Translations under genes and position numbers: made by a program
Source: Nitrosopumilus sp.
GTDB lineage: Archaea > Thermoproteota > Nitrososphaeria > Nitrososphaerales > Nitrosopumilaceae
DNA length: 64,000 nt
Direction of reading: 5' to 3'
Assembly (NCBI GenBank): GCA_965249555.1
Contig: OZ252243.1
Location: 2,048,001 to 2,112,000, forward strand
Shown here: in pieces, positions 19,980-63,372 of the stretch
How positions within the stretch are numbered: position 1 is the stretch's first letter
How the letters are laid out: every line of letters begins with the position of its first letter
Notes under the pieces: generated by a model
Seen by the model: only the letters and a program-made list of their open reading frames with translations
The model's database searches: none
Told to the model about the DNA's origin: nothing

Positions 19980-21063
19980 TAGCGAAGAGTCAAAGTTCGT
20001 GAACTAAAAATCATCAAAACACTTTTTGATCACCACACACAATGAAACACATGGACAAGTTAGAACAGCTTGAAGCAGCATACAAAAAGGAAAACTCCAA
20101 AGATATAGTCAGGATGCTTGCAGTACTAATGGTTCTCAAAGAGGGTAAGGAATTAGAGTACGCACAAACACTACACCGCTGTACAAACTGGGTACGCAAA
20201 TGGGTTGATCGTTTTAAAGTAGATGGCCTATATGATCACCCAAGGAGTGGAAGACCATGTGTAATCCCAAAGAAGCAAATGGATTCTATTATGTTCAAAA
20301 TTATGTTGACACTATTTACACCTGTAATGCTGCAGCAGACAATATTTGATTCTACTGGAATAAAATTTCACATAACACATGTCAGAAAAATAATGCACCA
20401 GTATGGAATGTATGGAATGTCTGCTAAAACTGCACAAAAATATCACGTCAATCATGCAAGTGTAACAGCTGTGCGCAGCTGGGCAGCAACGCATGAAAAA
20501 GAGAATTCCACACCTAAAAAAGAGTGGATTCACCATTGCAATGCTTGATGAGGCATTCTTTGTTAGGGATGTAAAGGCAGGACGAAAATATTGGTCACCA
20601 GTTGCCAAAAGAATATTTCTCCCATATGTGGGAAACCATGAAAGTTTGGCAGTGTATGGAACAATTACAATCAATGGAGACCAACTGTTTAGAATTTATA
20701 AAAAATTCAACGGTATAACATTTGTAGAATATCTAAAAGAGCTACACTACAAATATGGTAAAATTGCGTTGATACTTGACAGGGCATCAGTGCAGCAATC
20801 AAAGAAGGTCAGGGACTTTTTGACAGATAATCCAGATGTTAAACTGATTTGGCTACCAAAAGGACCCACCATATCTAAACATGATAGAGCAGTGTTGGAA
20901 AATAGGCAAGCATGTGTTGTTGGTATCAGAATATTATGCAATGTTTGCAATAATGAATAATGCAGTGTCACAATACTTTGGAACAAAAAAATTCAAACTT
21001 GATGTTGTTAATTATATTTTTAGAAATCCTGCAAAGATGTTCACGAACTTTTGATCGTCGCTA
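19980..21063 (+). mobile_element. IS630-family element, copy 1 (frameshifted transposase)
   Basis: Imperfect TIRs TAGCGA..AAAGTTCGTGAAC; flanking TA; HTH ORF (DHPRSGRP) plus DDE ORF (LDEA, ILDRAS). Confidence 0.9.
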
Positions 21064-21258
21064 TACCATCACCCTCCTTTTTGATCAAATTGCCTGATCT
21101 AGCGGAATGCTCCCATTTGCCATCTATGTGGTATTTTGTTTTCCGCTCACTTTGAGTTAGTCTGTGTAACGCCCTTGTACATGGCAGTAATAATTCAACT
21201 CTCAGGCCCAACAGTAGGTATACATCACAAGATATGAAAAAGATTTCGTATAACGTCT
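21064..21258 (-). ncRNA. IS110 family B left end / bridge-RNA-like region; transposase cut off by IS630
   Basis: Near-identical to 44217-44410. Confidence 0.75.
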
Positions 21259-21350
21259 GTTAAGAGATTGATCATCAGAAACTGGGGGGCCTAAATACAT
21301 CAGGAATAATGAAATGGAATTGATTTTATACTACGTTTGATCAAAATATA

Positions 21351-23247: not shown

Positions 23248-24231
23248 ATGTATGTTGGCATTGACTTGCACAAGAAATTTCTTCAAGTGGCAACAATGGA
23301 TAATGACGGAAAGATATTACAAAACATAAAAGTTGAGAACACTCATGAATCAATCAGGAAACATTTTACAGACATACAGATTCATGCCAATATTGTCATG
23401 GAATCATCATCAGTATAACACGTATGGATTTCTTACAGATGAATTGGGATACAAAAACGTGACACTCTCAAACCCGTATCTTACAAAGACAATAGCCGCA
23501 TCAAAAAAAACAGACAAGATTGATGCCAGGATACTGGCAGATCTTTTGCGTGGAGGATACATTGCAACATGCCATATTCCAAACAAAAAGATAGTAAAAC
23601 ATCGCCAGCTGGTAAGATACAGAAAAAAACTCATTCAGTGGAGAACATCTCTCAAAAATTCTGTCCATGGAATTTTGTTACAGGAGGGAATCAAGATACC
23701 CGGAGTCACATTCACTGTAACATACAACAAAAGACTCACCTCCCTAGGTGACTATCGCATAGATGGATTTGTACGACAGATAGACTATCTTAATCTGCAA
23801 ATTGCAGATATTAATTCAAGAGTGTATGCTGCTGTAAATGCCAGTCCTGATGCCATGATAATAAAATCAATACCCGGAATTGGTGACTACTCGTCACTAG
23901 TTATCGCATCAGAAATTGCAAATATTAGCAGATTCAATGACTCTCACAAGTTATGCGCATATGCAGGAGTCGTGCCATCAGTCAGAAACTCTGCAGATTA
24001 CACCATGGCAGCATAACCAAAAGAGGAAGCATGACACTACGATGGGTCCTTATCCAATGCGTCCATTCTCATGCAATACATGCCAAGAACAGTGACATTA
24101 CAAAATTTTACAATCGCATTAAAAAGAAGAGAGGCTCATCAAAAGATGCAGTTGCCGCATCATCCCAGATTCTGTGAGTGATTTACTGGATGCTAAAAGA
24201 GAGGAGAGAATTTGTACAGAATTACAGTTAG
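23248..24231 (+). pseudogene. IS110-family DEDD recombinase/transposase, disrupted
   Basis: MYVGIDLHKK, VMES, KTDKIDA, IPGIG, YAGVVPSVRNS, GSITKRG; stops and frameshifts. Confidence 0.9.
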
Positions 24232-27038: not shown

Positions 27039-27544
27039 TCCATGTGAATTGTTTTTATACATTTCCCACTTTTTTACATCCAGAGGAATAGCTTTCGCTA
27101 GGGAATGCTTTCAAACAAAAGATGACGGACATGTATCCATACGAGGCTTCTTCCTCAATGCTATCTTCATCCCTTCGTTAGGACATATTCGCAGTTATCA
27201 ACCGAGGCTTGTCCCTCAACATACCAAACGCGACTTGCAGTCCTAACTGTAATTCTGTACAAATTCTCTCCTCTTTTTTAGCATCCAGTAAATCACTCAC
27301 AGAATCTGGGATGATGCGGCAACTGCATCTTTTGATGAGCCTCTCTTCTTTTTAATGCGATTGTAAAATTTTGTAATGTCACTGTTCTTGGCATGTATTG
27401 CATGAGAATGGACGCATTGGATAATGACCCATCGTAGTGTCATGCTTCCTCTTTTGGTTATGCTGCCATGGTGTAATCTGCAGAGTTTCTGACTGATGGC
27501 ACGACTCCTGCATATGCGCATAACTTGTGAGAGTCATTGAATCT
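27039..27544 (-). mobile_element. IS110 family A, 3' part including the ncRNA end
   Basis: Near-identical inverted copy of about 23930-24435; again abuts TACATAC. Confidence 0.88.
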
Positions 27545-27680
27545 CCCATACGAAATCGTCTCCAATTACTACGGACACTTTTTAGCGTGCTTTGCTGAAT
27601 CAGGACATCTCAGATATGCCTTGCATCTTATACTTTTGTTGTGTCAGTTCATGATTTTGTGTACGATACACTTTCAGAAT
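27543..27680 (-). mobile_element. IS110 family B right end, joined to family A transposase sequence
   Basis: Matches 50126-50262; sub-terminal GATTTCGTAT. Confidence 0.75.
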
Positions 27681-27713
27681 TGCAAAGAGAAGAGGAAGTG
27701 GAAATGTGTGTGC

Positions 27714-36232: not shown

Positions 36233-37030
36233 GGCACAAATCAGACATCAAAAAGAATCACTTACCAATTGCAGGAATTGACACAAATGCCAAGTGGGGA
36301 TTCTCCAAATCAAGGGGTTGGGTGTATGGATACAAACTACACATGAGTTGCAGTACAGGAAAGACTAGTTGTTCCATTATCTGCCATGTGTAACTACTGC
36401 AAATGTTCATGATAGCAAGCCATATGAAAAATTGATTGGGTCACTTTCTGGATTGATGAATAACATATGGTGTGATCCGGCATATGATGATTCCAAACCA
36501 TACGAGTCAACTAAGAACTTAGCAAGTCTGCCAATACGTCTGAATCAAGTTTGTCGTTTTTGAGCTTTGCCTGTGCAATTATCTTGGTCTTTGCAGGATG
36601 TGCAAGAATTGTATCAATTCCATGGTCCTCTAGTGTGTCATGTAGTCTGATCCAATAGTTTGCAGTTGATTCGCACATTGCCTGTATGTCATTACCATAT
36701 GTCTTTTTGATATGTTTGATAAAACCCATTATTCCATTTGTGGTATTATCAAAGCTTGTCTGCTCTAGATTCTTTCTGGATTCCTATTTTGTTGCAACAC
36801 ATTTTATTTTGTAGACATTAATTCCTATGCTGATCATACCATCACCTCCTTTTTGATCAAATTGCCTGATCTAGCGGAATGCTCCCATTTGCCATCTATG
36901 TGGTATTTTGTTTTCCGCTCACTTTGAGTTAGTCTGTGTAACGCCCTTGTACATGGCAGTAACCATTCAACTCTCAGGCCCAACAGTAGGTATACATCAC
37001 AAGATATGAAAAAGATTTCGTATAACGTCT
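36233..37030 (-). mobile_element. Chimera: IS110 family B left end and transposase 5' fragment (36511-36837) fused to an opposite-strand IS982/IS5-like fragment
   Basis: Inverted near-duplicate of 44217 to about 44990 with the same junction. Confidence 0.85.
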
Positions 37031-37058
37031 ATAAAGTTATAGTGATGTAGAAATAATT

Positions 37059-40000: not shown

Positions 40001-42773
40001 GAACGGTAAAGTCAGACATTGCCTCTATTGTAATATTGCCTAAACTGCCAATTATTGGTGCAGTGGTATCTTGTACTGTGATTGTTTGCGTGGCACCAGC
40101 TGAATTGCCTGAATCATCAGTTGCAGTCCAAGTAACTAGAGTAGTGCCAAGTGGGAATGTACTTGGAGCATTATTTGTTATGGCAGGCGACAAATCCCCA
40201 TCATCAATTGCCGTAGCAGTGCCAATTTGTGAATCAGTTATAGGTGTTAGTGCTGCTGTTGCCTCAAATGTTTTATCACTTGGTATGGTAAGGATGGGAG
40301 AAATATTATCCCGAAATACCAAATTTACATTAAATGTAATAGTTGCTAGATTGTTTGCAGAATCAATAGCAGTACATGTAACTATAGTATTGCCAGTTGA
40401 AAATACAGATCCACTAGGTGGATCACAAATAACTGCAACTATACCATCTGTATCATCAGTTGCAGTAGGTATGGTGTAATCAAATACTTTGGAATTTGCA
40501 TTATCTATAAAATCAAATTTGTCATTAACTGGTGAAAAAACTGGTGGCATATTATCAATAGGTGCAGCAGCGTCATAAACAGAGATACTATCTAACTCTG
40601 TATCCTCACTATTACTGTTAGATATAGCATCAAATCGTAGTTTGAATTGGGAAGAAGAATAACTACTCAGATCATACTCTGCAAAATGCCACTGGCCATC
40701 ATCGTATGCATTACCATCATCATCTGTTTGATCAGCTGTAAATGATTCTAATACTTGCCAAATATTCCCATCATTTTCTGAAACATATGTGACAATACCT
40801 TCCTGACTTCTAGCATCCGCTCCTGTTGCTACAAACCAGTTGAAGCTTAGTTTGGGGGTTGTCATTTGTGTCAAGTCAACATTATCAACCATTATCATAG
40901 TACATACATCATCACAGTCTTCAGTTCCTGCTACTTTATTGCCAGATATAGAATCAAGTACTGGAATAAGAGGGGAATTTCGTATACTCCAAAATTCATC
41001 ATCACCTGTAGTTAAAATCCAGTTTGACATGTCTGTCTCAAAGTTATCAATAAAAGAGGTTAATGTATTTGAAACAGGTACATTAACAGTTAAGGTAATA
41101 CTGGAACTAGCTCTTACTCCATCACCATTTTCTGCTGAAACTGTAATGGTATGCACACCATTTGTTAATCCAGTTAAAGTGGATTCAAAGTTTAGACTGA
41201 CATCTTCTGATATTACACGAGTCATTATTGGATCAATACTAGTAATACCATCAACTCTGATTGTAATATCTTCAATTCCCGATGACATTGACTCATAGAT
41301 AAATCCCTCAATTACTACAAATGAGGACATTATAGTAGTATTATCCCTTGGAGATTGTACAGTAATACTAGGAGGTGAAGTGTCTGGGATGTGGACATTT
41401 AAGATATTTGATGGAGTAGATGCACCAAAGTCATTGCTTGTAAAAATTCTAAAGAATTGATTGTATCCTTCGTGTCTCACATAATCAAAGCTAGTTGTAG
41501 TTTCACTATAACTATTATGATGTTGCCAATTTATAGAATCCCTAGATCTCTCAACTTCATAAAATGTAATCTCAGAACTACCCTCATCTGGATGACTCCA
41601 GGTAAAATGCAATGTTGTACCTGATAGGGTATAGGCAAAGTCATCTACAGCAGCAGGGATTGCCTGAATTGATCCTGGGCCAACAATTGATATTAATCCC
41701 TCTCTGGTATGTCCAAATCTTCCATCAGTTACAGAATATCTAATGGTGTCTGATTCAGGAGGAAAGATTGCAGGTGTGTATATTAATTGAGATGAATCTC
41801 CATCAGTGTTAGTTAGAGGGATAGTTTTATTGTCATGGGTTAAAAATCCATTAGTTGGAAAATCTACAAGTTTATAGGTTAAATAATCAAAATCAGTATC
41901 AACTGCATCTAAGTTAATAGTAACAGCATTATCATTGCTTACTATCTTATCTATATTTTGAGGGGTAGGAATTTGGTTTCTAACAGCTATAACATCGCAA
42001 TCAATTTTTGTTACACTTCCTGCAACAAAAGAGTTATCTCTACATTTTTTGCCCAAATATCCTTGATCTTCATCAACTGCAAAAACTACAGCACTACTTG
42101 GTAGATTTACCCAAACATTATTTTGTTTTATTTTCATATTTGTAAACTTGCTCATAGGAATGGATGAATATCCAAGAGGTGCAGGATCAGAAGCAGAAAC
42201 TGTTCCCTCTATTCCAATATTAGCATTAAAGACACTCTCAGGATGTAAGTTAACGCGTGCAGGGTGATCTAAAAAATATGGAGTACTAACAGTGACTGCA
42301 ACTCCAAGTCCATCTGTATCTTCTATAGTTACTTTAACATTCTCGCCAGGATCTACTCTGCCACCAGGAACTAAATATTCTATATAATTAGGTATATTAT
42401 CTTCATTAACATTGTTTACTGCATAATAGATACTTAGTTTTGTGACACATTCAGGGTCACCAACTCCACCTATCCTAAACTCTCCTTTTGTTACTCCAGA
42501 TTCAACCCACTCTACAAGTTCATTATCACCTATAGGATCAGCAATAAGCCAACCAGCAGATACAGCAATATTACTACAAGCATTTCTGTCAATGTAAAGA
42601 TCAGGAGAATCTAACTCATATTCAACTCCAGTAATTTTGGTAAATCCGTCAGTTCTGATTTGTGAATGACAACGGTCATCAAAAGTACATGGAGATGCAA
42701 AGGCATCTTCATGACTAATAGCTAGAACACACAGTGTAAAGACAATTGAAGATAACGCTATAGCTTTAATCAC
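37059..42773 (-). CDS. 1904-aa secreted surface protein: putative neprosin-like head, Ig/cadherin-like, FN3, jelly-roll, HYR repeats, three FN3
   Basis: Signal peptide; DTTxP..FPLGTT.VTWTA.D HYR repeats; SVTLSW..GY..YVFRV.A.N FN3 repeats; head assignment is inference. Confidence 0.85.
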   Translation of the reverse strand: MIKAIALSSIVFTLCVLAISHEDAFASPCTFDDRCHSQIRTDGFTKITGVEYELDSPDLYIDRNACSNIAVSAGWLIADPIGDNELVEWVESGVTKGEFRIGGVGDPECVTKLSIYYAVNNVNEDNIPNYIEYLVPGGRVDPGENVKVTIEDTDGLGVAVTVSTPYFLDHPARVNLHPESVFNANIGIEGTVSASDPAPLGYSSIPMSKFTNMKIKQNNVWVNLPSSAVVFAVDEDQGYLGKKCRDNSFVAGSVTKIDCDVIAVRNQIPTPQNIDKIVSNDNAVTINLDAVDTDFDYLTYKLVDFPTNGFLTHDNKTIPLTNTDGDSSQLIYTPAIFPPESDTIRYSVTDGRFGHTREGLISIVGPGSIQAIPAAVDDFAYTLSGTTLHFTWSHPDEGSSEITFYEVERSRDSINWQHHNSYSETTTSFDYVRHEGYNQFFRIFTSNDFGASTPSNILNVHIPDTSPPSITVQSPRDNTTIMSSFVVIEGFIYESMSSGIEDITIRVDGITSIDPIMTRVISEDVSLNFESTLTGLTNGVHTITVSAENGDGVRASSSITLTVNVPVSNTLTSFIDNFETDMSNWILTTGDDEFWSIRNSPLIPVLDSISGNKVAGTEDCDDVCTMIMVDNVDLTQMTTPKLSFNWFVATGADARSQEGIVTYVSENDGNIWQVLESFTADQTDDDGNAYDDGQWHFAEYDLSSYSSSQFKLRFDAISNSNSEDTELDSISVYDAAAPIDNMPPVFSPVNDKFDFIDNANSKVFDYTIPTATDDTDGIVAVICDPPSGSVFSTGNTIVTCTAIDSANNLATITFNVNLVFRDNISPILTIPSDKTFEATAALTPITDSQIGTATAIDDGDLSPAITNNAPSTFPLGTTLVTWTATDDSGNSAGATQTITVQDTTAPIIGSLGNITIEAMSDFTVLTLSNPTVTDIFPTTITNDVPMQFPLGTTTVTWTAVDTSGNPASTSQDIIIADTIPPQFIILQDMTFEATGLSTPLSQSDYGTPSATDHFTVTITNDAPELFPLGDTVINWTLVDSNGNTATTANTITVQDTTAPTITAPSDVTLESTDVLTRVSSSQLGQATSIDSVDRNPIITHDAPNSFPLGDTIVIWYATDSSNNRSSATQMVTIQDTTKPVFVTPADIAISTDSTSAIVNFNEPVATDIFPVTITCDYASDHSFFIGTTIVTCTATDSAGNPATISFDVTVTLSSDDVNPVITLPGDKTFEATSQLTPISASQLGQATATDNRDAEPDITNNAPSTFPLGTTLVTWTATDDSDNQSSAVQRITIQDTTAPIISSLSNITIEAMSDFTVLTLSNPTVTDIFPTTITNDVPMQFPLGTTTVTWTAIDTSGNPASTSQDIIIADTIPPQFIILQDMTFEATGLSTPLSQSDYGTPSATDHFTVTITNDAPMQFPLGDTVINWTLVDSNGNTATTANTITVQDTTAPTITAPSDVTLESTDVLTRVSSSQLGQATSIDSVDRNPIITNDAPNSFPLGDTIVIWYATDSGNNRSSAAQMVTIHDTTKPVFVTPADIAISTASTSAIVNFNEPVATDIFPVTITCDYASDHSFFIGTTIVTCTATDDSGNSASTSFTVSVSVSSPPVLPSTPTRLLVTGANTNSVTLSWDDTDDDSIMGYKILCRDISTGDALQPCVEDTASSDTTHVVENLSSEAVYVFRVIAINDTGQSPHSNFVRFGTATSHAPTTSHAPTTSHAPTNLLVTGTTINSVTLSWDDTDDDSITGYKILCRDISTGDALQPCVEDTASTDTTHVVENLLSGAVYVFRVISINGIEESPQSNYVQISTTLLAPTNLLVTGTTHNSVTLSWDDTNDDRATGYTILCRDDLYICIFDTGSSDTTHVVEHLSPDTAYVFRVIAINDFIHSEHSNFVRVVTDSTP

Positions 42774-43822
42774 TTCATTACACTCTCAAACACTGGAATT
42801 AATTCATCTAGTGTATGATAATAAGAATTTACATATAAAATGGTATATTCATCAGGTGCAAAAGCAACATTAGCTATGTAATAATTTAAATCGTTTCCAC
42901 CGGCATAGGCACTTACAAATTTACCATCTCTAGTCATTTCTCTAAGTTCACCATAATTACCACGTTGAGAAGATCTTGATTCCCATAAACTCTCAGCAAT
43001 ATCCTCCTGTGAATTCCAAGGAACATCTGCAATTTTAACTACAATACCATATCCATTAGATTGTCTGTACAAACTAGTATCAGTTACATTTGGATATAGT
43101 ATAAAATCACTAGGAACAAAACGATACCCAACAGAGTGAACTTCATAAGCAGAATTGGGATCATAGTTACGCTGTAGTTGATAATTGTTAGAATACGCAT
43201 ATAGTAATTTGTAGCCGTCAAGAATGTATGTAGGCATCCAGTCTTCAATGTATAGTCCAACACCTTGGTTTTTTGAATATTTTTCATGTGGAGGAGAAGA
43301 TATTGAAGCTAAACCACTTACATCATTATTACCAATTACCAAATCATAGCCCATAATTTTATCAAATATTGGCCGAGGTCCTGGTCCTCTTTGTAAAACA
43401 CCCTTGTATTCTCTACCATCATCAACAAATTCTACAGGTGAGGCCACATTCAAAACTGTAATTTGTGGCTCATCATTTACATTATCAACTGTTAATTTTA
43501 CATTTGTAGAATCAGGTTCTTCTACATCCATATTTGTAGAATCAGGTTCTTCTACATCCATATTTGTAGAATCAACAGTAATTGCTATAACATTAAATCC
43601 AATTTGCAACAATCTATCTACCGAGTTTTCAGTTACACAAGCTGGAGTGTTTCGTGGTGATTCCATTAAAATTTTCGAACCATTACATTGAATTTCATTA
43701 ATTGGTATTCCCGAACTGTATTGTTTGAATGGTGATAAGATTTCTGTCTCTGCAAGTGCAGGTATTGCACTTAATCCGATAGCAATGACTGCAAGCAGTA
43801 TTGATGTTGTTATATTATTCAA
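42770..43822 (-). CDS. Secreted protein with an N-terminal SPFKQ...CV..RL..GF module
   Basis: Signal peptide; stop overlaps the start of the 1904-aa gene; N-terminus shared with 51119-52516. Confidence 0.8.
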   Translation of the reverse strand: MNNITTSILLAVIAIGLSAIPALAETEILSPFKQYSSGIPINEIQCNGSKILMESPRNTPACVTENSVDRLLQIGFNVIAITVDSTNMDVEEPDSTNMDVEEPDSTNVKLTVDNVNDEPQITVLNVASPVEFVDDGREYKGVLQRGPGPRPIFDKIMGYDLVIGNNDVSGLASISSPPHEKYSKNQGVGLYIEDWMPTYILDGYKLLYAYSNNYQLQRNYDPNSAYEVHSVGYRFVPSDFILYPNVTDTSLYRQSNGYGIVVKIADVPWNSQEDIAESLWESRSSQRGNYGELREMTRDGKFVSAYAGGNDLNYYIANVAFAPDEYTILYVNSYYHTLDELIPVFESVMK

Positions 43823-44188: not shown

Positions 44189-44216
44189 ACCATATTCTAC
44201 CACTCGCAGATTACAC

Positions 44217-44409
44217 AGACGTTATACGAAATCTTTTTCCCATCTTGTGATGTATACCTACTGTTGGGCCTGAGAGTTGAATGAATACTGCCATGTACAA
44301 GGGCGTTACACAGACTAACTCAAAGTGAGCGGAAAACAAAATACCACATAGATGGTGAATGGGAGCATTCCGCTAGATCAGGCAATTTGATCAAAAAGGA
44401 GGTGATGGT
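44217..44409 (+). ncRNA. IS110 family B left end with a bridge-RNA-like structure (44268-44383)
   Basis: GCCTGA/TCAGGC closes two stem-internal loop-hairpin arms; loop strands match insertion flanks and the donor end; AGGAGGTGA ribosome-binding site follows. Confidence 0.8.
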
Positions 44410-44736
44410 ATGATCAGCATAGGAATTGATGTTCACAAAATAAAATGTGTTGCAACAAAATAGGAATCCAGAAAGAAGCTAGAGCAGTCAAGCTTTGATA
44501 ATACAACAAATGGGATAATGGGTTTTATCAAACATATCAAAAGCACATATGGCAATGACATACAGGCAGTATGTGAGTCAACTGCAAACTATTGGATCAG
44601 ACTACATGACACGCTAGAAGACCATGGAATTGATACAACTCTTGCACATCCTGCAAAGACCAAGATAATTGCACAGGCAAAGCTAAAAAACGACAAACTT
44701 GATTCAGACGTATTGGCAGACTTGCTAAGTTCTTAG
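44410..44736 (+). pseudogene. IS110 family B transposase, N-terminal DEDD domain, truncated
   Basis: MISIGIDVHK, VCEST, KNDKLDS; internal stop. Confidence 0.88.
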
Positions 44737-45494
44737 TTGACTCGTATGGTTTGGAATCATCATATGCCGGATCACACCATATGCTATTCATCAATCCAGA
44801 AAGTGACCCTATCAATTTTTCATATGGCTTGCTATCATGAACATTTGCAGTAGTTACACATGGCAGATAATGGAACTAGTCTTTCCCGTACTGTAACTCA
44901 TGTGTAGTTTGTATCCATACGCCCAACCCTTTGATTTGGAGAATCCCCACAATTGGTAAGTGATTCTTTTTGATGTCTGATTTGTGCCATACTGGACCTG
45001 AAGCTTTTAACATTGAACTATCAACTGATGCTGATTCACTATTCACCAATCCTTCTGAGACAAACAAATCGCCTACAGTGTCAATAATTTCATTGATTGG
45101 CAAACATTGAAATCTTTTGTCAATTGTCCTTCTGTCAGGGATTTAATCTGCAAACCTTGAGTAATTTGTCATTGGTACATTTGATTGAGAGAAAATAATG
45201 CAGTGTGCTGTCACTTGGAATTCTCATCCATGACTTTATGATGTATAATTACACCATCAGAACAGTCAAATGGACATATGGTAGTCCTCGTCTCATTGCA
45301 TTCTCGTACAGATATAGTGTTCCCGCCAGATACAAAACACCAATAAGAAATGACTCACATAGAATCCTGCTAGGGATTTTTATTTGTTTTGTAATCATTT
45401 CAATGAACAAAACATGATGAGATCCTTTGCTTTTTCTATTTGAATAATTTGAGAAATCGGTTAAAAATTAGAATGGATTATGCCCATGTCTCAG
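44730..45494 (-). mobile_element. IS982/IS5-like element, left two-thirds, degenerate
   Basis: Homologous to 62109 to about 62900; TIR CTGAGACATGGGCATAAT ends at 45494. Confidence 0.85.
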
Positions 45495-45664
45495 TAAACT
45501 GTGAATGTTTTTTTGGTGCTTTGATTTTGTTTTATTGGTATAACCGTACAATTTGTGGGCTGCAGACCTTACGTATACTTTGTAAGATCGCAAATTGCCA
45601 TAAATTTGTTTATTATTTTGAGGCATACCGCAAGTCATTATCAATTTTATTATAACAAGGTGCC

Positions 45665-46582
45665 GTGTATAGTACAATGACATTGAAAATGACAATACCA
45701 TTGTTAATAGCGATGCTGTTAGTTCCGGCAGGGATTAATGGTATTACTGCACAAACAGTACAAAACGAATCTACGTTAGAACTAGAATTAACAGCATATG
45801 AGAAATCAATGTTGGAAAGCCCTAGTCTGAAAGATGTAAGTGAAGAAGTAAAAATTGATTTTATTAAAAATCTAAGAGAATTCAGAAATAATCTTTCTGG
45901 ATACGATGCAAAAATTGTAGAAAAATTAGATGAACTTGCAATTGCAGATCTCAAACTCAAAGAGGCCAATAATTCAAACAAAGATGAGAAAACAATACAA
46001 AAATATGAATCTCAAAAAGCATTAAAAATATTTGAATTAGAAGATTTGGGAGTACCATCACAAGAAAGATTGGAGGCAAATCCACAATACTGGACAGAAA
46101 AAGCAATTGAATCTAAAAAACGTATTGAAAGTAACAATACACAACCAGTAATTGGAACTGATAGAAATGATGACATTTATTTCATCCATTCTAGTGATTC
46201 AGCTCTGAAGAGAGTATCAATACTTTGGGTTCCTTGTTGGAATGAAGGATTCCAAGTTAGTTGTCCTAATCTTAATTGGGGTTGGAATGTAGGGACTACT
46301 ACAGCATTCTGGTGGATTCCTACTGATGGAATTATGAGTTTTGGAAGCCAAATTTGTAATGATAGTGATATCAATCATGACACGATTAACTACAATATGA
46401 GAATTGAACGTGAAATCATTAGTATTTTCCAAACAACTGTATATGATTTTGATAACACTACTAGTGAAAGTCTAGATGCTGATCGATACAATTGTGACAA
46501 TACTACATTTTACAAGTCTGTTAATGCAGGAAGCCGTACTGAATTAAGTACATCAATCAGTAACATTTTTGTTACTGGTTAA
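45665..46582 (+). CDS. Secreted protein of unknown function (helical N-part, Cys/Trp-rich C-domain)
   Basis: Signal peptide; 305-aa ORF. Confidence 0.75.
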   Translation: MYSTMTLKMTIPLLIAMLLVPAGINGITAQTVQNESTLELELTAYEKSMLESPSLKDVSEEVKIDFIKNLREFRNNLSGYDAKIVEKLDELAIADLKLKEANNSNKDEKTIQKYESQKALKIFELEDLGVPSQERLEANPQYWTEKAIESKKRIESNNTQPVIGTDRNDDIYFIHSSDSALKRVSILWVPCWNEGFQVSCPNLNWGWNVGTTTAFWWIPTDGIMSFGSQICNDSDINHDTINYNMRIEREIISIFQTTVYDFDNTTSESLDADRYNCDNTTFYKSVNAGSRTELSTSISNIFVTG

Positions 46583-49323: not shown

Positions 49324-49908
49324 ATGAAAATGAAATTTCTACTTCCAGTAATCTTTGCAAGTGTAATTGTTGCAGTTAGTATGGTAATGGTTAATGATGA
49401 TACATATAGTACATATGAATATGTACCATCAGATATTACAAAAGCAAATTCAAATATCAAACTCGCAAGTGGCAGTTCATCATTTGATACAATCAACCCT
49501 TCAGAAATAAAAGACAAAATTACTCACACTGTTATAGCCGAAGTAAAATCTGTAGATGATGTTATTCCTTGGCAAGATAAATGGGGCGAAACCTATGGTG
49601 CAGTTCCTGTAACTCTAAAAGTAATGGAAGTTGTAAAAGGTGACATATCCACAAAAAAAATAACCATTTATCTGCATGGAATGTATGAGCAAGATGAATT
49701 CTATCTTTTACCAAATGAACCACAATTTGAAATTAATGAAAAAGTTCTAGTTCATTTAAGCACACAAGATAAAAATGGGTTTGAAGAAGGAGTATTATAT
49801 GTTCAGATAGCTGAATATGGTAAATATAAGATTGTCAATGATCAAGCATACAACAAAAATAATCCAAACGGAAAAAGTTTAGATTCTGCAAAGAACGAAT
49901 CTAAATGA
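49324..49908 (+). CDS. Exported protein of unknown function
   Basis: N-terminal hydrophobic segment; 6 bp after the metzincin stop. Confidence 0.75.
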   Translation: MKMKFLLPVIFASVIVAVSMVMVNDDTYSTYEYVPSDITKANSNIKLASGSSSFDTINPSEIKDKITHTVIAEVKSVDDVIPWQDKWGETYGAVPVTLKVMEVVKGDISTKKITIYLHGMYEQDEFYLLPNEPQFEINEKVLVHLSTQDKNGFEEGVLYVQIAEYGKYKIVNDQAYNKNNPNGKSLDSAKNESK

Positions 49909-49999: not shown

Positions 50000-50126
50000 G
50001 GCTCTGGTCAGTTCTGGTGATCTAGCATAGATAGTGGTCAGAAGTGACAAATATGGATCTTCTCAAGATTGCCCGACCCCCTTGAAAAATCCTTGGTCAG
50101 AAGTGATATAAAAAATTCTTGAATAC
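50000..50126 (+). repeat. About 127-bp dispersed repeat, probable IS end (GGCTCTGGTCAGTT...)
   Basis: Second copy at 58049-58178; internal TGGTCARAAGTGA twice. Confidence 0.7.
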
Positions 50127-50482
50127 TCCCATACGAAATCGTCTCCAACCCTACTGAGGACACTTACTAGCGTGCTTTGCTGAATCAGGACATCTCAGAT
50201 ATGCCTTGCATCTTATACTTTCGCTGTGTCAGTTCATGATTTTGTGTATAATACACTTTCAGAGTTAACATGTGCCCGGATTATTGCAAGCATCCGGTCT
50301 TGCAGCTGCCACCTTTGTTTTCACCTCTTTGCAATTCTGAAATAGAATGATCCCATTCTTTCATCAAATCGTACTGTAGTATTTGCAGCCTCTACCATTG
50401 CGTTACGTAACCATGCAGAACCCCTCTTTGTTATTCCGCCTCCTCGGTGCACATCTGCACTATCCCTGTGCGATGGTGCAAA
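50126..50482 (-). mobile_element. IS110 family B transposase C-terminal fragment and right end
   Basis: APSHRDS..GGITKRGSAWLRNAMVEAA; ends GATTTCGTATGGGAG. Confidence 0.85.
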
Positions 50483-51053
50483 TCGTAATCTTTTCACCAT
50501 CACGAATTTGTTGTGGTATTTCAATATGTCTAGAATTTGTTTGTAATGTGGATTGTAATGCAAAAGAATCATCCATTTGGTTAAACTCTGAATTTATTGC
50601 AGGTGGTATCTCCCAAGTATTTCCATATTGTGTGGGATCCATTTTTTTAATTATATGGGTAGTATCATTTATTGTAGTTATAACATAATTTTTATCAATT
50701 CCTCTCATTTCCATACGGATCATACTATCAATTACAACAATTGATACAGTACCATCTTCAATGATACCTTTGTATCTGTATTCGTCATCTGTTCTATAGT
50801 TAATTTTTTCTCGTGTAATTTCTATTATTTCACCAAAGATGTTTAATTGCATTTTTGGTTGATTTAGTGCATCCAGATTAATATTCACATATGCAGCATT
50901 GGAAACTGTAGGTGTTGTTATTTCAGGTGGACTCGCTATATTAGATGGTATTAATTCAACAAGATCTGGTACTTGCTGTGCAAATGAATCTTCCAATATG
51001 GGAGACAATAATACCAATACCAGAAAAGGAATTACATTTTTTACTAAAGTCAT
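50483..51053 (-). pseudogene. Secreted protein truncated by the IS110 fragment; resembles a reprolysin/M12-type prodomain
   Basis: Signal peptide and a beta-rich YKGIIEDG..V.IV..YVI..HII pattern; family assignment is inference. Confidence 0.55.
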
Positions 51054-51118: not shown

Positions 51119-52516
51119 TTATTGCATTCTCTTTAGAATATCTATTGCTTTTTGCACATCATTATCAGCATCAATTAAAGCCTGTGTTGCATCGTGACGT
51201 GACACTATAGCTTCATTTGCCACATACCTAATATCATCAGCATCGATATGATAATCAACTGTTTCTCGTAGAGGTATGAATTCTTCAAATTCCCCTGTTT
51301 CATCATTAACTCTAGACCCGCCTGCACTTCCAGTTCTTTCTACATATAATAGATTTCCAGTTACTGCATCAAAAAATCCAAAATAGGTCAAAGATACACC
51401 ATCTGAGGATCTTGTAGGTGAAGGTATGCTACAATATACAAGTTGGAGTTTGTAAATAGGTCTCTCATCATATAGTTGCAATGAGGGTTTGGTCCATTGT
51501 TCGAAATATATACCATCTTCAACATGATTATCTTTACAACCAACGTTAAGAAATTTATCATGTTCTAAGACAAATCTTGTAGATGCTTCTTTAAGGTTTG
51601 TTGGGTCTGCAAGTTTCATCTCATTTAGATTGTCATTCCAATAACCAAAGAAGATCATAGTATAACCACCATGTAGATTTACATGAAGTGTATTAGTAGA
51701 TAAATGATAACCATGTGCATTCTGAAAATAACGCTTTTTATCAACGCTAGTAGGTCTAATAGCACTTTCATATGTTGCAAGTTTCAAATCAATTCCCATA
51801 TATTCAAAAAAATCTCTTGCTTGTTCGTGACCAGTTGATATTTCAAAACTATGTGGATGTACAAGTTGAATAGTTACTTTAAGATACCTCTGTGTGTATT
51901 TTTCAAGTTCTATATAACCCTCATTTTCTAAAAAATATCTGTATTTGTCATACATCTCTCTTTTGTCTATTATTCTAATACCAAAATAATCGGCAATCTT
52001 TTGTGCAAAAGCATCTGGATCATCAGGGGGTAATTTTATTACACTAGGGTAAAGAATATCTTGTGGAATTAATTCCGAGATATTTTTAGGGTTTAGAATA
52101 TACACTGGTTCCTCATGTGTGGTTTGAACCGTTGAATTTGTACTGGTTGATTTATCAACACTGGCATCCAATTCTTCAATAGGTGAAGCAATTACAGGAT
52201 TTACATTATCAACTGTTGATTTTACATTTGTAGAATCTTGTTTTTCTACATCCGTATTTGTAGAATCGACAGTAATTGCTATAACATTAAATCCAATTTG
52301 CAACAATCTATCTACCGAGTTTTCAGTTACACAAGCTGGAGTGTTTCGTGGCGATTCCATCAAAATTTTAGAATCACTGCATTGGATTTCATTAATGGGT
52401 ATTCCCGAACTGTATTGTTTGAATGGTGATAAGATTTCTGTCTCTGCAAGTGCAGGTATTGCACTTAATCCGATAGCAAAGACTGCAAGCAGTATTGATG
52501 TTGTTGTATTATTCAA
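51119..52516 (-). CDS. Secreted protein with the SPFKQ module and a C-terminal UBA/NAC-like tail
   Basis: N-terminal ~100 aa near-identical to 42770-43822; ends DDIRYVANEAIVSRHDATQALIDADNDVQKAI. Confidence 0.8.
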   Translation of the reverse strand: MNNTTTSILLAVFAIGLSAIPALAETEILSPFKQYSSGIPINEIQCSDSKILMESPRNTPACVTENSVDRLLQIGFNVIAITVDSTNTDVEKQDSTNVKSTVDNVNPVIASPIEELDASVDKSTSTNSTVQTTHEEPVYILNPKNISELIPQDILYPSVIKLPPDDPDAFAQKIADYFGIRIIDKREMYDKYRYFLENEGYIELEKYTQRYLKVTIQLVHPHSFEISTGHEQARDFFEYMGIDLKLATYESAIRPTSVDKKRYFQNAHGYHLSTNTLHVNLHGGYTMIFFGYWNDNLNEMKLADPTNLKEASTRFVLEHDKFLNVGCKDNHVEDGIYFEQWTKPSLQLYDERPIYKLQLVYCSIPSPTRSSDGVSLTYFGFFDAVTGNLLYVERTGSAGGSRVNDETGEFEEFIPLRETVDYHIDADDIRYVANEAIVSRHDATQALIDADNDVQKAIDILKRMQ

Positions 52517-60329: not shown

Positions 60330-60504
60330 TGAGACTTGGGCATAATGATTTACAAAAAAACCAAGACTTTTCTCTAACAACAAAGCATTCTTTTCACAAT
60401 CCTTGGATTCTCACTTCCAATTACACAGACGTTATACGAAATCTTTTTCATATCTTGTGATGTATACCTACTGTTGGGCCTGAGAGTTGAATGGATACTG
60501 CCAT
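60330..60504 (+). mobile_element. IS982/IS5-like right end joined at TTACACAG to a partial IS110 family B left end
   Basis: Same junction as 61876-62110. Confidence 0.8.
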
Positions 60505-61875: not shown

Positions 61876-62110
61876 TGAGGCTTGGGCATAATGATTTACA
61901 AAAAAACCAAGACTTTTCTCTAACAGCAAAGCATTCTTTTCGCAGTCCTTGGATTTTCACTTTTAATTACACAGACGTTATACGAAATCTTTTTCATATC
62001 TTGTGATGTATACCTACTGTTGGGCCTGAGAGTTGAATGGATACTGCCATGTACAAGGGCGTTTAACAGACTAACTCAAAGTAAGCGGAAAACAAAATAC
62101 CACATAGATG
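61876..62110 (+). mobile_element. IS982/IS5-like right end plus IS110 family B left end, cut by the next IS
   Basis: Homologous to 60330-60504 and 44217-44354. Confidence 0.8.
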
Positions 62111-63252
62111 AGACATGAGCATAATCCATTCTAATTTTTAACCGATTTCTCAAATTATTCAAATAGAAAAAGCCAAGGATCTCATTATGTTTTGTTCATT
62201 GGAATGATTACAAAACAAATAAAAATCCCTGACAAGATTCTATGTGAGTCATTTCTTATTAGTATTTTGTATCTGGTTGGAACACTATATCTGTATGAGA
62301 ATGCAGTGAGACGAGGACGGCCATATGTCTATTCAACTGTTCTGATGGTTCAGTTATTCATCGTAAAGTCATGGATGAGAATTCCAAGTAACAACACACT
62401 GCATTATTTTCTCTCAATCAAATGTACCAATGACAAATTACTCAAGGTTTGCAGACTAAACCAAATCCCTGACAGAAGGACAATTGACAGAAGATTTCAA
62501 TGCTTGCCAATCAATGAAATTATTAGCACTGTAGGAAATTTGTTTGTCTCAGAAGGATTGGTGAATAGTGAATCAGCATCAGTTGATAGTTCAATGCTAA
62601 AAGCTTCAGGTCCAGTATGGCACAAATCAGACATCAAAAAGAATCACCTACCAATTGCAGGAATTGACACAAATGCCAGGTGGGGATTCTCCAAATCAAA
62701 GGGTTGGGTGTATGGATACAAACTACACATGAGGTATAGTACGGGAAGACTAGTTGTTCCATTATCTGCATGTGTAACTGCTGCAAATGTCCATGATAGT
62801 AAGCCATATGAGAAATTGATTGGGTCACTTTCTGGATTGATGAATAACATACTGTGTGATCCGGCATATGATGATTCCAAACTATACGAGTCAACTAAGA
62901 ATAATGCCATGAGATTAATCTGTCCGGTCAAAAAATACCCGTCTACGCCGCCAGCCAGAATAAAGTTGATAGGGTTTTACAATTCAGCAGTTGGTCGGAA
63001 ATTATATTCTCAGAGAAAAATATCAATTGAACCACTCTTTGAAATAATCAAGGATACGTTTAACATTAGAACAGTTCCGGTGAAAGGATTTGAGAACGTA
63101 CAATCATTCGTGCTGATTTGTGTGCTGGTGTATCAGTTGGCAGTGTATTATAATTGTGTAATTGGAAGTGGGAATCCAAGGATTGTGAAAAGAATGCTTT
63201 GTTGTTAGAGAAAAGTCTTGGTTTTTTTGTAAATCATTATGCCCAAGTCTCA
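62109..63252 (+). mobile_element. IS982/IS5-like element with TGAGAC(A/T)TG(A/G)GCATAAT terminal repeats
   Basis: Inverted ends at 62109 and 63252 around a DDE ORF. Confidence 0.85.
62192..63208 (+). CDS. DDE_Tnp_1-type transposase, apparently intact
   Basis: VDSS, YGYKLH, ANVHD, DPAYD, RKISIEPLF. Confidence 0.9.
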   Translation: MFIGMITKQIKIPDKILCESFLISILYLVGTLYLYENAVRRGRPYVYSTVLMVQLFIVKSWMRIPSNNTLHYFLSIKCTNDKLLKVCRLNQIPDRRTIDRRFQCLPINEIISTVGNLFVSEGLVNSESASVDSSMLKASGPVWHKSDIKKNHLPIAGIDTNARWGFSKSKGWVYGYKLHMRYSTGRLVVPLSACVTAANVHDSKPYEKLIGSLSGLMNNILCDPAYDDSKLYESTKNNAMRLICPVKKYPSTPPARIKLIGFYNSAVGRKLYSQRKISIEPLFEIIKDTFNIRTVPVKGFENVQSFVLICVLVYQLAVYYNCVIGSGNPRIVKRMLCC

Positions 63253-63372
63253 GTTATACAATTAACGCATTGCAAACATATAATGTAGAAGAAGGGTTAG
63301 TTGAGTGTTATAAAATCTCTTAATGCATGATTTTTTTGTGTAACTTAAATATACAGTTAGAAATGATTTTTT

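Follow-up and report, generated by a model that had tools for sequence, protein, structure and literature searches.

RNA-guided recombinases of the IS110 and IS1111 groups have so far been studied experimentally in a handful of bacterial elements. In the IS1111 family, as far as the account of Siddiquee et al. goes (2024; PMC11187229), the complement of the top strand comes first in the RNA, and the elements have sub-terminal inverted repeats, beyond which they extend by 7 bp at the left and by 3 bp at the right; a few members, e.g. ISMtsp17, are described there with an upstream non-coding region. Sub-terminal repeats of 7-17 bp, usually 11-13 bp, are given for the IS1111 group in that account and in the one by Durrant et al. 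(2024; PMC11208160), where those of IS621 measure 2-3 bp. The present analysis concerns a stretch of 64,000 nt from the 2.23-Mb genome of Nitrosopumilus sp. (assembly GCA_965249555.1, contig OZ252243.1, positions 2,048,001 to 2,112,000; hereafter the window), and coordinates are window positions unless given as genome positions. We consider it very probable that positions 44219-44729 are a truncated, dead copy of an insertion sequence of about 1.32 kb, belonging to the IS110 superfamily and of IS1111 type, with a two-loop guide RNA.

The boundaries of this element and its AG core are proven by the comparison of filled and empty sites. A full-length copy in a repeat of about 157 bp reads ...CTTGAT AG, then the element with its final core, ACGTTATACGAAATC ... 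GATTTCGTATGGG AG, and then TATTCAAG, while against this one filled site stand three identical uninterrupted copies reading ...CTTGATAGTATTCAAG and two more that are near-identical. The filled site minus the empty site is exactly the element plus one AG, with no further target duplication, and the element is therefore about 1320 bp long and was inserted at an AG dinucleotide present on both sides. The boundary deduced in an earlier note on this DNA, made from the letters alone, is thereby confirmed. Site-specific insertion at a short core, with neither terminal inverted repeats nor target duplication, is a trait of the IS110 superfamily. Metagenome contigs were also searched with a degenerate 24-nt pattern for a circle or tandem junction, giving five matches, all of unrelated sequence and at chance level, and contigs of four runs, aligned to the full-length copy L003, break inside the repeat, with no empty site and no circle junction among them. 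Assembled contigs are poorly suited to detecting such a junction.

The window copy comprises positions 1-511 of the element on the + strand. It is preceded at 44211-44218 by the left target flank TTACAC and the core AG (44217-44218), and directly 3' of it, from 44730 onward, lies a piece of a DDE insertion sequence that is unrelated and in reverse orientation, a junction that recurs in the copy at 37030(-). The left sub-terminal inverted repeat ATACGAAATC (44224-44233, + strand) has its partner GATTTCGTAT 3 bp inside the right end. The two are perfect over 10 bp and occur in all right ends of the element family; they start 5 bp inside the left end and stop 3 bp before the right-hand AG, so that outside them the left end extends by 7 bp (AGACGTT, provided that the core is assigned to this end) and the right end by 3 bp (GGG). 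Among 30 right ends all read ...GATTTCGTATGGGAG, except for one copy with ...GGGAA, in agreement with the right end and AG core that the earlier note had proposed. A 5'-truncated copy with an intact right end (50126-50484, - strand) likewise ends at 50126 and is followed by AG+TATTCA, its own-strand right flank being TATTCAAG. The repeat length lies within the range given for IS1111 and the 7/3-bp extensions are those of that family.

The longest reading frame of the best genomic copy matches PF01548 (E = 7.7e-19) and PF02371 (E = 7.2e-26), and the model NF033542, "IS110 family RNA-guided transposase", with 216 bits against a cutoff of 140; it thus has the N-terminal DEDD/RuvC-like domain and the C-terminal Transposase_20 domain of the IS110 superfamily. 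A search for relatives gave 972 proteins at E <= 1e-20, of which the intact ones have about 356 amino acids (aa). The few named relatives are from Nitrosotenuis, Nitrosotalea and Nitrosopumilaceae, and plasmid relatives bear generic labels ("IS110 family transposase") with an identity of at most 39%. The loci of 79 relatives were retrieved, most of them from Nitrosopumilaceae assemblies, which marks the host as an ammonia-oxidising thaumarchaeon; the 41 in which the protein match starts at residue 1-4 form the comparative set, with 240 nt upstream of the start codon aligned with the window copy.

All 41 loci share one plan, namely a closing stem, two arms each made of a stem, an internal loop and a small hairpin, a spacer, and the ribosome-binding motif GGAGGTGA. 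In the window this bridge/seek RNA core occupies about 116 nt (44268-44383, + strand; 140 bits with covariance model R1). The closing stem pairs GCCTGA (44268-44273) with TCAGGC (44378-44383), the target-binding arm 1 pairs GAGTT (44274-44278) with AACTC (44317-44321) and contains a GCC/GGC hairpin from 44290, and the donor-binding arm 2 pairs AGCGGAA (44328-44334) with TTCCGCT (44368-44374). Stems, loop strands and the repeat ATACGAAATC all lie where the earlier note had placed them, and its claim of a 5' non-coding RNA combined with sub-terminal inverted repeats is borne out. The structure was counted on 28 of the aligned relatives. Of 672 cells, 87.8% are paired, and shifting the 3' partners by 1-3 columns lowers this to 27-48%; both sides have changed in 13 of the 24 pairs, and the 67 cells with a double change were reached by none of 500 shuffles. 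The 3' side of the closing stem is partly misaligned (72.6% paired), and the stem of arm 2 is almost invariant and hence gives little information for or against the structure.

The internal loops of the two arms correspond to the target and to the joined element ends, in each case to both strands, as is characteristic of bridge and seek RNAs. In loop 1, the 5' strand TGAATACT (44282-44289, + strand; right-target guide) is complementary to AG+TATTCA, and the 3' strand TTACACAG (44306-44313, +; left-target guide) is identical to the left flank with its core at 44211-44218, as claimed from the start. In loop 2, the 3' strand ATGGGAG (44359-44365, +; left-donor guide) has the same letters as the right end plus core, and the 5' strand AAC (44335-44337, +; right-donor guide) pairs with GTT of the left end ACGTT. 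The earlier note listed as a weak point that this second donor strand matches only AAC. The count of three pairs is right, but it is not a flaw, since the position covaries with the left end in relatives, and AAC is accordingly a genuine short right-donor guide. By inspection, the left-target guide is followed by bases that match the first two of the element, AC here and AT in relatives with a left end that starts with AT.

Across genomes the correspondences between guides and DNA span quite different sequences. For the left target, flank and guide read GACCGGCAG/GACCGGCAG, GTTATGCAG/GTTATGCAG, GGGCAACAG/GGGCAACAG and, with a TG core, GCCTATGTG/GGCTATGTG; for the right target, GTGCAACT occurs with AG+TTGCAC, TGGTACCT with AG+GTACCA and CACGAACT with AG+TTCGTG. 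In L026 the left-donor guide and the right end have changed in step, both reading GGCTG, and the right-donor guide, compared with bases 2-5 of the left end, gives ATCAA/TTGAT, AGTG/CACT and GGCA/TGCC. The fit of the left target is 4.72/6 observed vs. 1.84 +/- 0.22 shuffled (32 distinct pairs), that of the right target 3.89/5 vs. 2.48 +/- 0.18 (27 distinct pairs) and that of the right donor 3.52/4 vs. 2.76 +/- 0.10 (25 distinct pairs), and in each case none of 20000 shuffles was as high. Six alignment rows with incomplete columns were skipped, and eight further loci were left out of the right-target test: five without a right-end candidate, two with a repeat score of 1, and L021, which has two equal right ends. 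Covariation of the stems together with that of guides and DNA supports the bridge-like RNA proposed in the earlier note, and by analogy with the characterised systems the two-loop RNA would be transcribed, would be bound by the transposase and would guide the target choice of the element.

As far as the two published accounts describe them, both branches of the superfamily are recognizable in this element. With IS1111/seekRNA elements such as ISEc11, ISKpn4 and ISPa11 (PMC11187229) it shares the DEDD transposase, the sub-terminal repeats and 7/3-bp extensions, an RNA with the top-strand complement before the bottom-strand match, targets that are often repeats or mobile elements, and natural re-direction among relatives. 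Unlike the usual IS1111 element in that account, it has the RNA gene upstream rather than downstream of the transposase gene, a repeat of 10 bp instead of 11-13 bp, and a thaumarchaeal host; the long non-coding region that normally follows the transposase gene is absent. As in the bridge RNA of IS621 and the IS110 group (PMC11208160), the RNA lies in the left end upstream of the recombinase gene, loop 1 reads the target and loop 2 the donor, each loop reads both strands including the core dinucleotide, and the right-donor pairing is discontinuous or weak. In contrast to IS621 as described there, the guide order is reversed, the repeats are 10 bp rather than 2-3 bp, and the core is AG instead of CT, so that neither the guide order nor the repeats are those of the IS110 group. 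The guide order is that of IS1111 if the RNA is read in the direction of the transposase.

The layout of relatives points the same way. In the thaumarchaeal clade the repeat arms are separated from the gene by about 190-200 bp on its 5' side and about 50-75 bp on its 3' side, vs. 52-90 bp and 168-258 bp in four more distant relatives (L061, L071, L074 and L081; 30-39% identity). These four, with repeats of 11-13 bp and 7/3 extensions, have the classic IS1111 layout, and in the downstream region of L071 a complement of the right flank followed by a match to the left flank can be found by eye. On the basis of guide order, repeats, extensions and the layout of these distant relatives, we file the element as IS1111-type with an RNA gene moved upstream, an assignment suggested by layout and guide order. 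The earlier note did not contain this placement in the IS1111/seekRNA branch instead of that of IS621, nor did it contain two further points taken up below, that all transposase copies are broken and that the 61967-type copy is a 136-bp passenger fragment.

A query with the 200-nt left end (44211-44410) gave 29 matches in the genome, five of them in the window, and covariance model R1 found the same five window copies, all of which the earlier note had reported. Besides the copy at 44219, there is a second truncated copy at 36518-37036 (- strand; left flank CTTTATAG, guides TGGTTACT / TTACACAG), and a third consisting of the left end only, about 198 bp (21063-21264, - strand; left flank CTTAACAG, guides TTATTACT / TTACACAG). 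The fourth, at 61967-62110 (+ strand), is made up of the flank 8-mer (61967-61974) and 136 bp of the element (61975-62110) with guides TGGATACT / TTTAACAG. The fifth, at 60421-60504 (+ strand), has a flank 8-mer of the same kind (60421-60428), 76 bp of the element (60429-60504) and the guide TGGATACT. The guide variants that had been read from the copies at 37036(-), 21264(-), 60421 and 61967 are these same sequences, TGGTTACT, TTATTACT and TGGATACT with TTTAACAG. The fragment at 61967 has an end piece of the DDE insertion sequence on one side and a full copy on the other, and the same composite is found at five places in the genome. That copies of this type are independent insertions was considered and rejected, as flank, 136-bp fragment and adjoining DDE element are shared by all five; from their identical surroundings, they spread as passengers of the latter.

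Variation among the genomic copies is concentrated in the guides, a claim of the earlier note for which it had named an alignment of all copies as the check. Across the 25 left ends compared in the genome, variable columns make up 9 of the 16 in the guides and 20 of the 178 outside them (one-sided Fisher test, P = 6e-5); when the minority base has to occur in at least two copies, the counts are 8/16 and 10/178 (P = 9e-6). Columns with three alleles number only two, both in the left-target guide. The genome has six alleles of each target guide, with a donor loop and ends that are common to the copies. The occupied sites correspond to this repertoire: 10 of 13 left-flank contexts match one of the six guide alleles exactly at the five non-core positions, vs. 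a mean of 0.11 for random AG sites, and of 21 right-flank contexts nine match exactly and 17 at four or more of five positions, vs. means of 0.36 and 4.2 for random AG sites. Many of these sites lie inside other repeats, namely the terminus of the DDE element (with ...CCAATTACACAG as left flank), the 157-bp repeat, and the region encoding the C-terminal part of another IS110-family transposase (with ATTCAATG... as right flank).

It might be argued that no RNA guidance is involved, the variable 8-mers being unconstrained loop positions and the flanks resembling each other through a fixed consensus read by the protein. The flanks in this genome do share a loose consensus (.T..A[CT]AG), and, as shown below, covariation between a copy and its own site is not significant here. 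Random sites matched to that consensus, on the other hand, gave a mean of 2.6 exact left-context matches with a maximum of 8 in 5000 draws, as compared to the 10 of 13 observed; guides and flanks change together at every position across genomes, e.g. in the pairs with GACCGGCAG, GTTATGCAG and GGGCAACAG; and the donor loop covaries with the element ends. We therefore regard the absence of guidance as extremely improbable.

Several observations nevertheless weigh against the RNA-guided reading. The loci in the cross-genome tests are mutually related, so that the shuffle counts overstate their independence, and both the choice of 41 of the 79 loci and the dropping of incomplete rows were selections made by the analyst. 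The right-target pairing needs two registers to cover all sites. In one, it is the fourth base counted from the hairpin stem that pairs with the first base of the flank; this register serves most relatives and 15 of the 21 right contexts in the genome, and in the window's family it leaves the A of ...GGTT-A-CT unpaired. The second, contiguous register is exact only for the TATTCA target (TGAATACT with AGTATTCA), and taken alone across genomes it is weak, at 2.07 vs. 1.62 +/- 0.15 with 36 of 20000 shuffles as high. The right-donor guide amounts to just three pairs in the window's family. Single-sequence folding of 44219-44400 was no better than shuffles (z = 0.10 on the + strand, -0.21 on the - strand) and is uninformative, so that the structure rests on comparative evidence. 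A wobble test of the RNA strand gave 27 G.U and 27 A.C cells and favours neither strand; on the analogy of characterised elements, the RNA is read here from the transposase strand. Of the 19 public sequencing runs listed for the locus, none is recorded as RNA. Lastly, in this genome the left-target guide of a copy does not fit the copy's own flank better than chance would have it, with 3.63 vs. 3.41 +/- 0.24 and 4533 of 20000 shuffles as high.

The last result bears on the proposal in the earlier note of natural guide reprogramming within one genome, possibly acting in trans. The part that stands is the match of the repertoires, in the 10 of 13 left and nine of 21 right contexts; the part that does not is covariation copy by copy, which is lacking here and significant in two related genomes. 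In genome G065 the fit of own guide to own flank is 4.2/5 vs. 2.01 +/- 0.41 (0 of 20000 shuffles), with nine guides among 13 copies, and in genome G080 it is 4.18/5 vs. 2.87 +/- 0.39 (27 of 20000 shuffles). From the G065 test two of 15 regions were left out (L108, with an extra TAG at the junction, and L118, with no left end), and from the G080 test two of 13 (L097, with no left end, and L102, identical to L101). The own-copy fit in these two genomes indicates that guide diversification within one genome is a trait of the clade, and the link between copy and site has been loosened in the genome of the window.

One possible explanation for this loosening is that the copies were inserted under their own guides (in cis) and that homologous recombination or gene conversion among the about 30 copies, together with decay, afterwards shuffled guides relative to flanks. 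There is direct evidence of such exchange. The copies at 44217 and 37030 share the odd foreign junction (44729|44730) and differ in left flank and right-target guide, and the left and right flanks of the copy at genome position 540532 come from two different repeat contexts, with the matching right flank in a partial copy nearby. In a related genome, the right-target and left-target guides of L101 belong to different allele pairs. The genome of the window also has inverted pairs of copies, at positions 851541/860919 and 1913922/1915795. Recombination alone does not account for the spread to several sites of copies that share a stop codon, and we give this explanation a reasonable chance that stays short of even.

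Alternatively, the RNA of one copy may have directed the insertion of another, so that sites fit the repertoire of the genome and often not the guide of the resident copy. Such action in trans would explain why the repertoires of guides and flanks match and own-copy pairing does not, and as the donor loop and ends are common to all copies, the RNA of any allele could serve any copy. The copy at genome position 2085036(-) carries TTACACAG and sits at CTTTATAG; the one at 2069264(-) also carries TTACACAG and sits at CTTAACAG, a site that agrees with the TTTAACAG allele in 7 of 8 positions. At least eight copies with a shared in-frame TAG are found at different sites, which fits a transposase supplied from elsewhere. 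This is a compatible pattern rather than direct evidence, and the same pattern would result from recombination between copies or from mutation after insertion; moreover, own guides fit own flanks in the two related genomes, where use in cis seems to be the norm of the clade. Since recombination explains the same mismatch, action in trans is possible but unproven, and we consider it rather unlikely. The two explanations do not exclude each other and can both hold.

The transposase copies of this family are all broken. The remnant in the window (44411-44729, + strand) has an in-frame TAG at 44462-44464 and is cut off after about 106 codons. Among the copies in the genome none encodes an intact transposase of the family: in the best one codon 18 is an in-frame TAG and the sequence is scrambled near the C-terminus, the remaining ones are split across frames, and in several the first catalytic Asp is replaced by Asn. 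With every copy broken, the element is a record of past activity. The in-frame TAG and a 3-bp deletion at codon 18 (element positions about 251-253) are common to 8 of 14 aligned copies, which occupy different sites, and this suggests the spread of a non-autonomous sub-lineage in the genome. The possibility that this TAG is a recoding signal was rejected, as five of the 14 aligned copies have a sense codon there (with the 3-bp difference) and one more has CAG, as intact relatives lack the stop, and as the best copy is also scrambled in its C-terminal region.

For the RNA-guided reading that we prefer, the following course of events is proposed. The transposase would bind the upstream two-loop RNA, whose loop-1 strands would read the target, the A before CU usually remaining unpaired in the right-target pairing. 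The 3' strand of loop 2 would pair in the same way with the right end of the element and the 5' strand, more weakly (3 bp here), with the left end, while the remaining recognition of the ends probably comes from the long inverted repeats. The element would then be inserted by recombination at the AG cores of the excised junction and the target. The strand and ends of the RNA, its binding by the protein, the circular intermediate and the chemistry are presumed by homology to characterised bridge and seek RNAs.

A covariance model built from 28 sequences found 25 places in this genome. Of 150 further genomes sampled from the family, 20 gave matches (one of the 20 being the unpublished G077), and so did 10 of 27 genera; the nine other genomes sampled from the same genus gave none. 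In Rfam 15, no family reached the threshold at the locus (one tRNA elsewhere being the only hit), and the best matches at E <= 10 were at chance level, with 11.5 and 9.3 bits. No description of this clade was found in the literature searched; the supplementary element lists of PMC11208160 and PMC11187229 may already include members.

A T/A-rich motif (TTATC / TTATA / TTTTCATAT) at element positions about 14-25 (window 44232-44243) is conserved in relatives, as read from an alignment by eye, and sits about 26-30 nt 5' of the closing stem. This motif could be a candidate archaeal TATA box, placing the 5' end of the RNA near a conserved TGTTGG.

The surroundings of the element are rich in other repeats. 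The DDE insertion sequence is present in multiple copies (in the window at 62111-63255 and as the reversed fragment at 44730-45498) and encodes a transposase of 338-357 aa with PF01609; it shows weak IS5/IS982/IS1182-like matches and has terminal inverted repeats starting with GAGAC.TG.GCATAAT. This DDE element and the IS110-type element interrupt each other. The uninterrupted target site in the DDE element, at 63150-63180 and in 10-11 other genomic copies, reads ...TTACACAATTATAAT with the core AA, whereas its filled counterpart has AG at both junctions; either the copy that was hit differed or a core mismatch was tolerated on insertion.

Remnants of a second IS110-family transposase lie at 23333-24177 (+) and 27297-27521 (-); they are 30-40% identical to the one studied here and belong to a kind with many genomic copies, beside which the RNA model gave no match. 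At six places the right end of the studied element abuts a fixed site in this second gene, and in the window a right-end fragment abutting ATTCAATG (27537-27681, - strand) lies inside a transposase-gene remnant of the different IS110-family element. The repeat of about 157 bp is found at G000:C1:1496363-1496519 and at about 12 other places, including window 50081-50125. It is a recurrent target (CTTGATAG|TATTCAAG), with at least five uninterrupted and at least five occupied copies. Five reading frames near the element (194-465 aa; 42770-43822, 45665-46582, 49324-49908, 50460-51053 and 51119-52516) had no Pfam match at E <= 0.001.

The mechanism as such is already known, and the element is an archaeal addition to the IS1111/seekRNA elements, among which its upstream placement of the RNA gene is the less common one. 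Its clade is archaeal and compact, the transposase measuring about 356 aa and the RNA core about 116 nt. By mixing features of the two branches, i.e. an upstream RNA as in IS621 with the guide order and long repeats of IS1111, it bears on the movement of the RNA gene between the ends of such elements. A tentative picture, for which the odds are clearly below even, is that of a library of guide alleles serving one common donor through RNAs acting in trans on sister copies, copies with a dead transposase gene included. The population of elements as a whole would then be retargeted by 1-3 base changes in two 8-nt strands, with many of its sites in rival insertion sequences and with a right-target guide that works in two registers, the A before CU being paired or bulged. 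The most interesting aspect is that guide alleles reside together in one genome and are matched by occupied sites, a natural data set on the fewest changes needed for retargeting and on guide action in trans.

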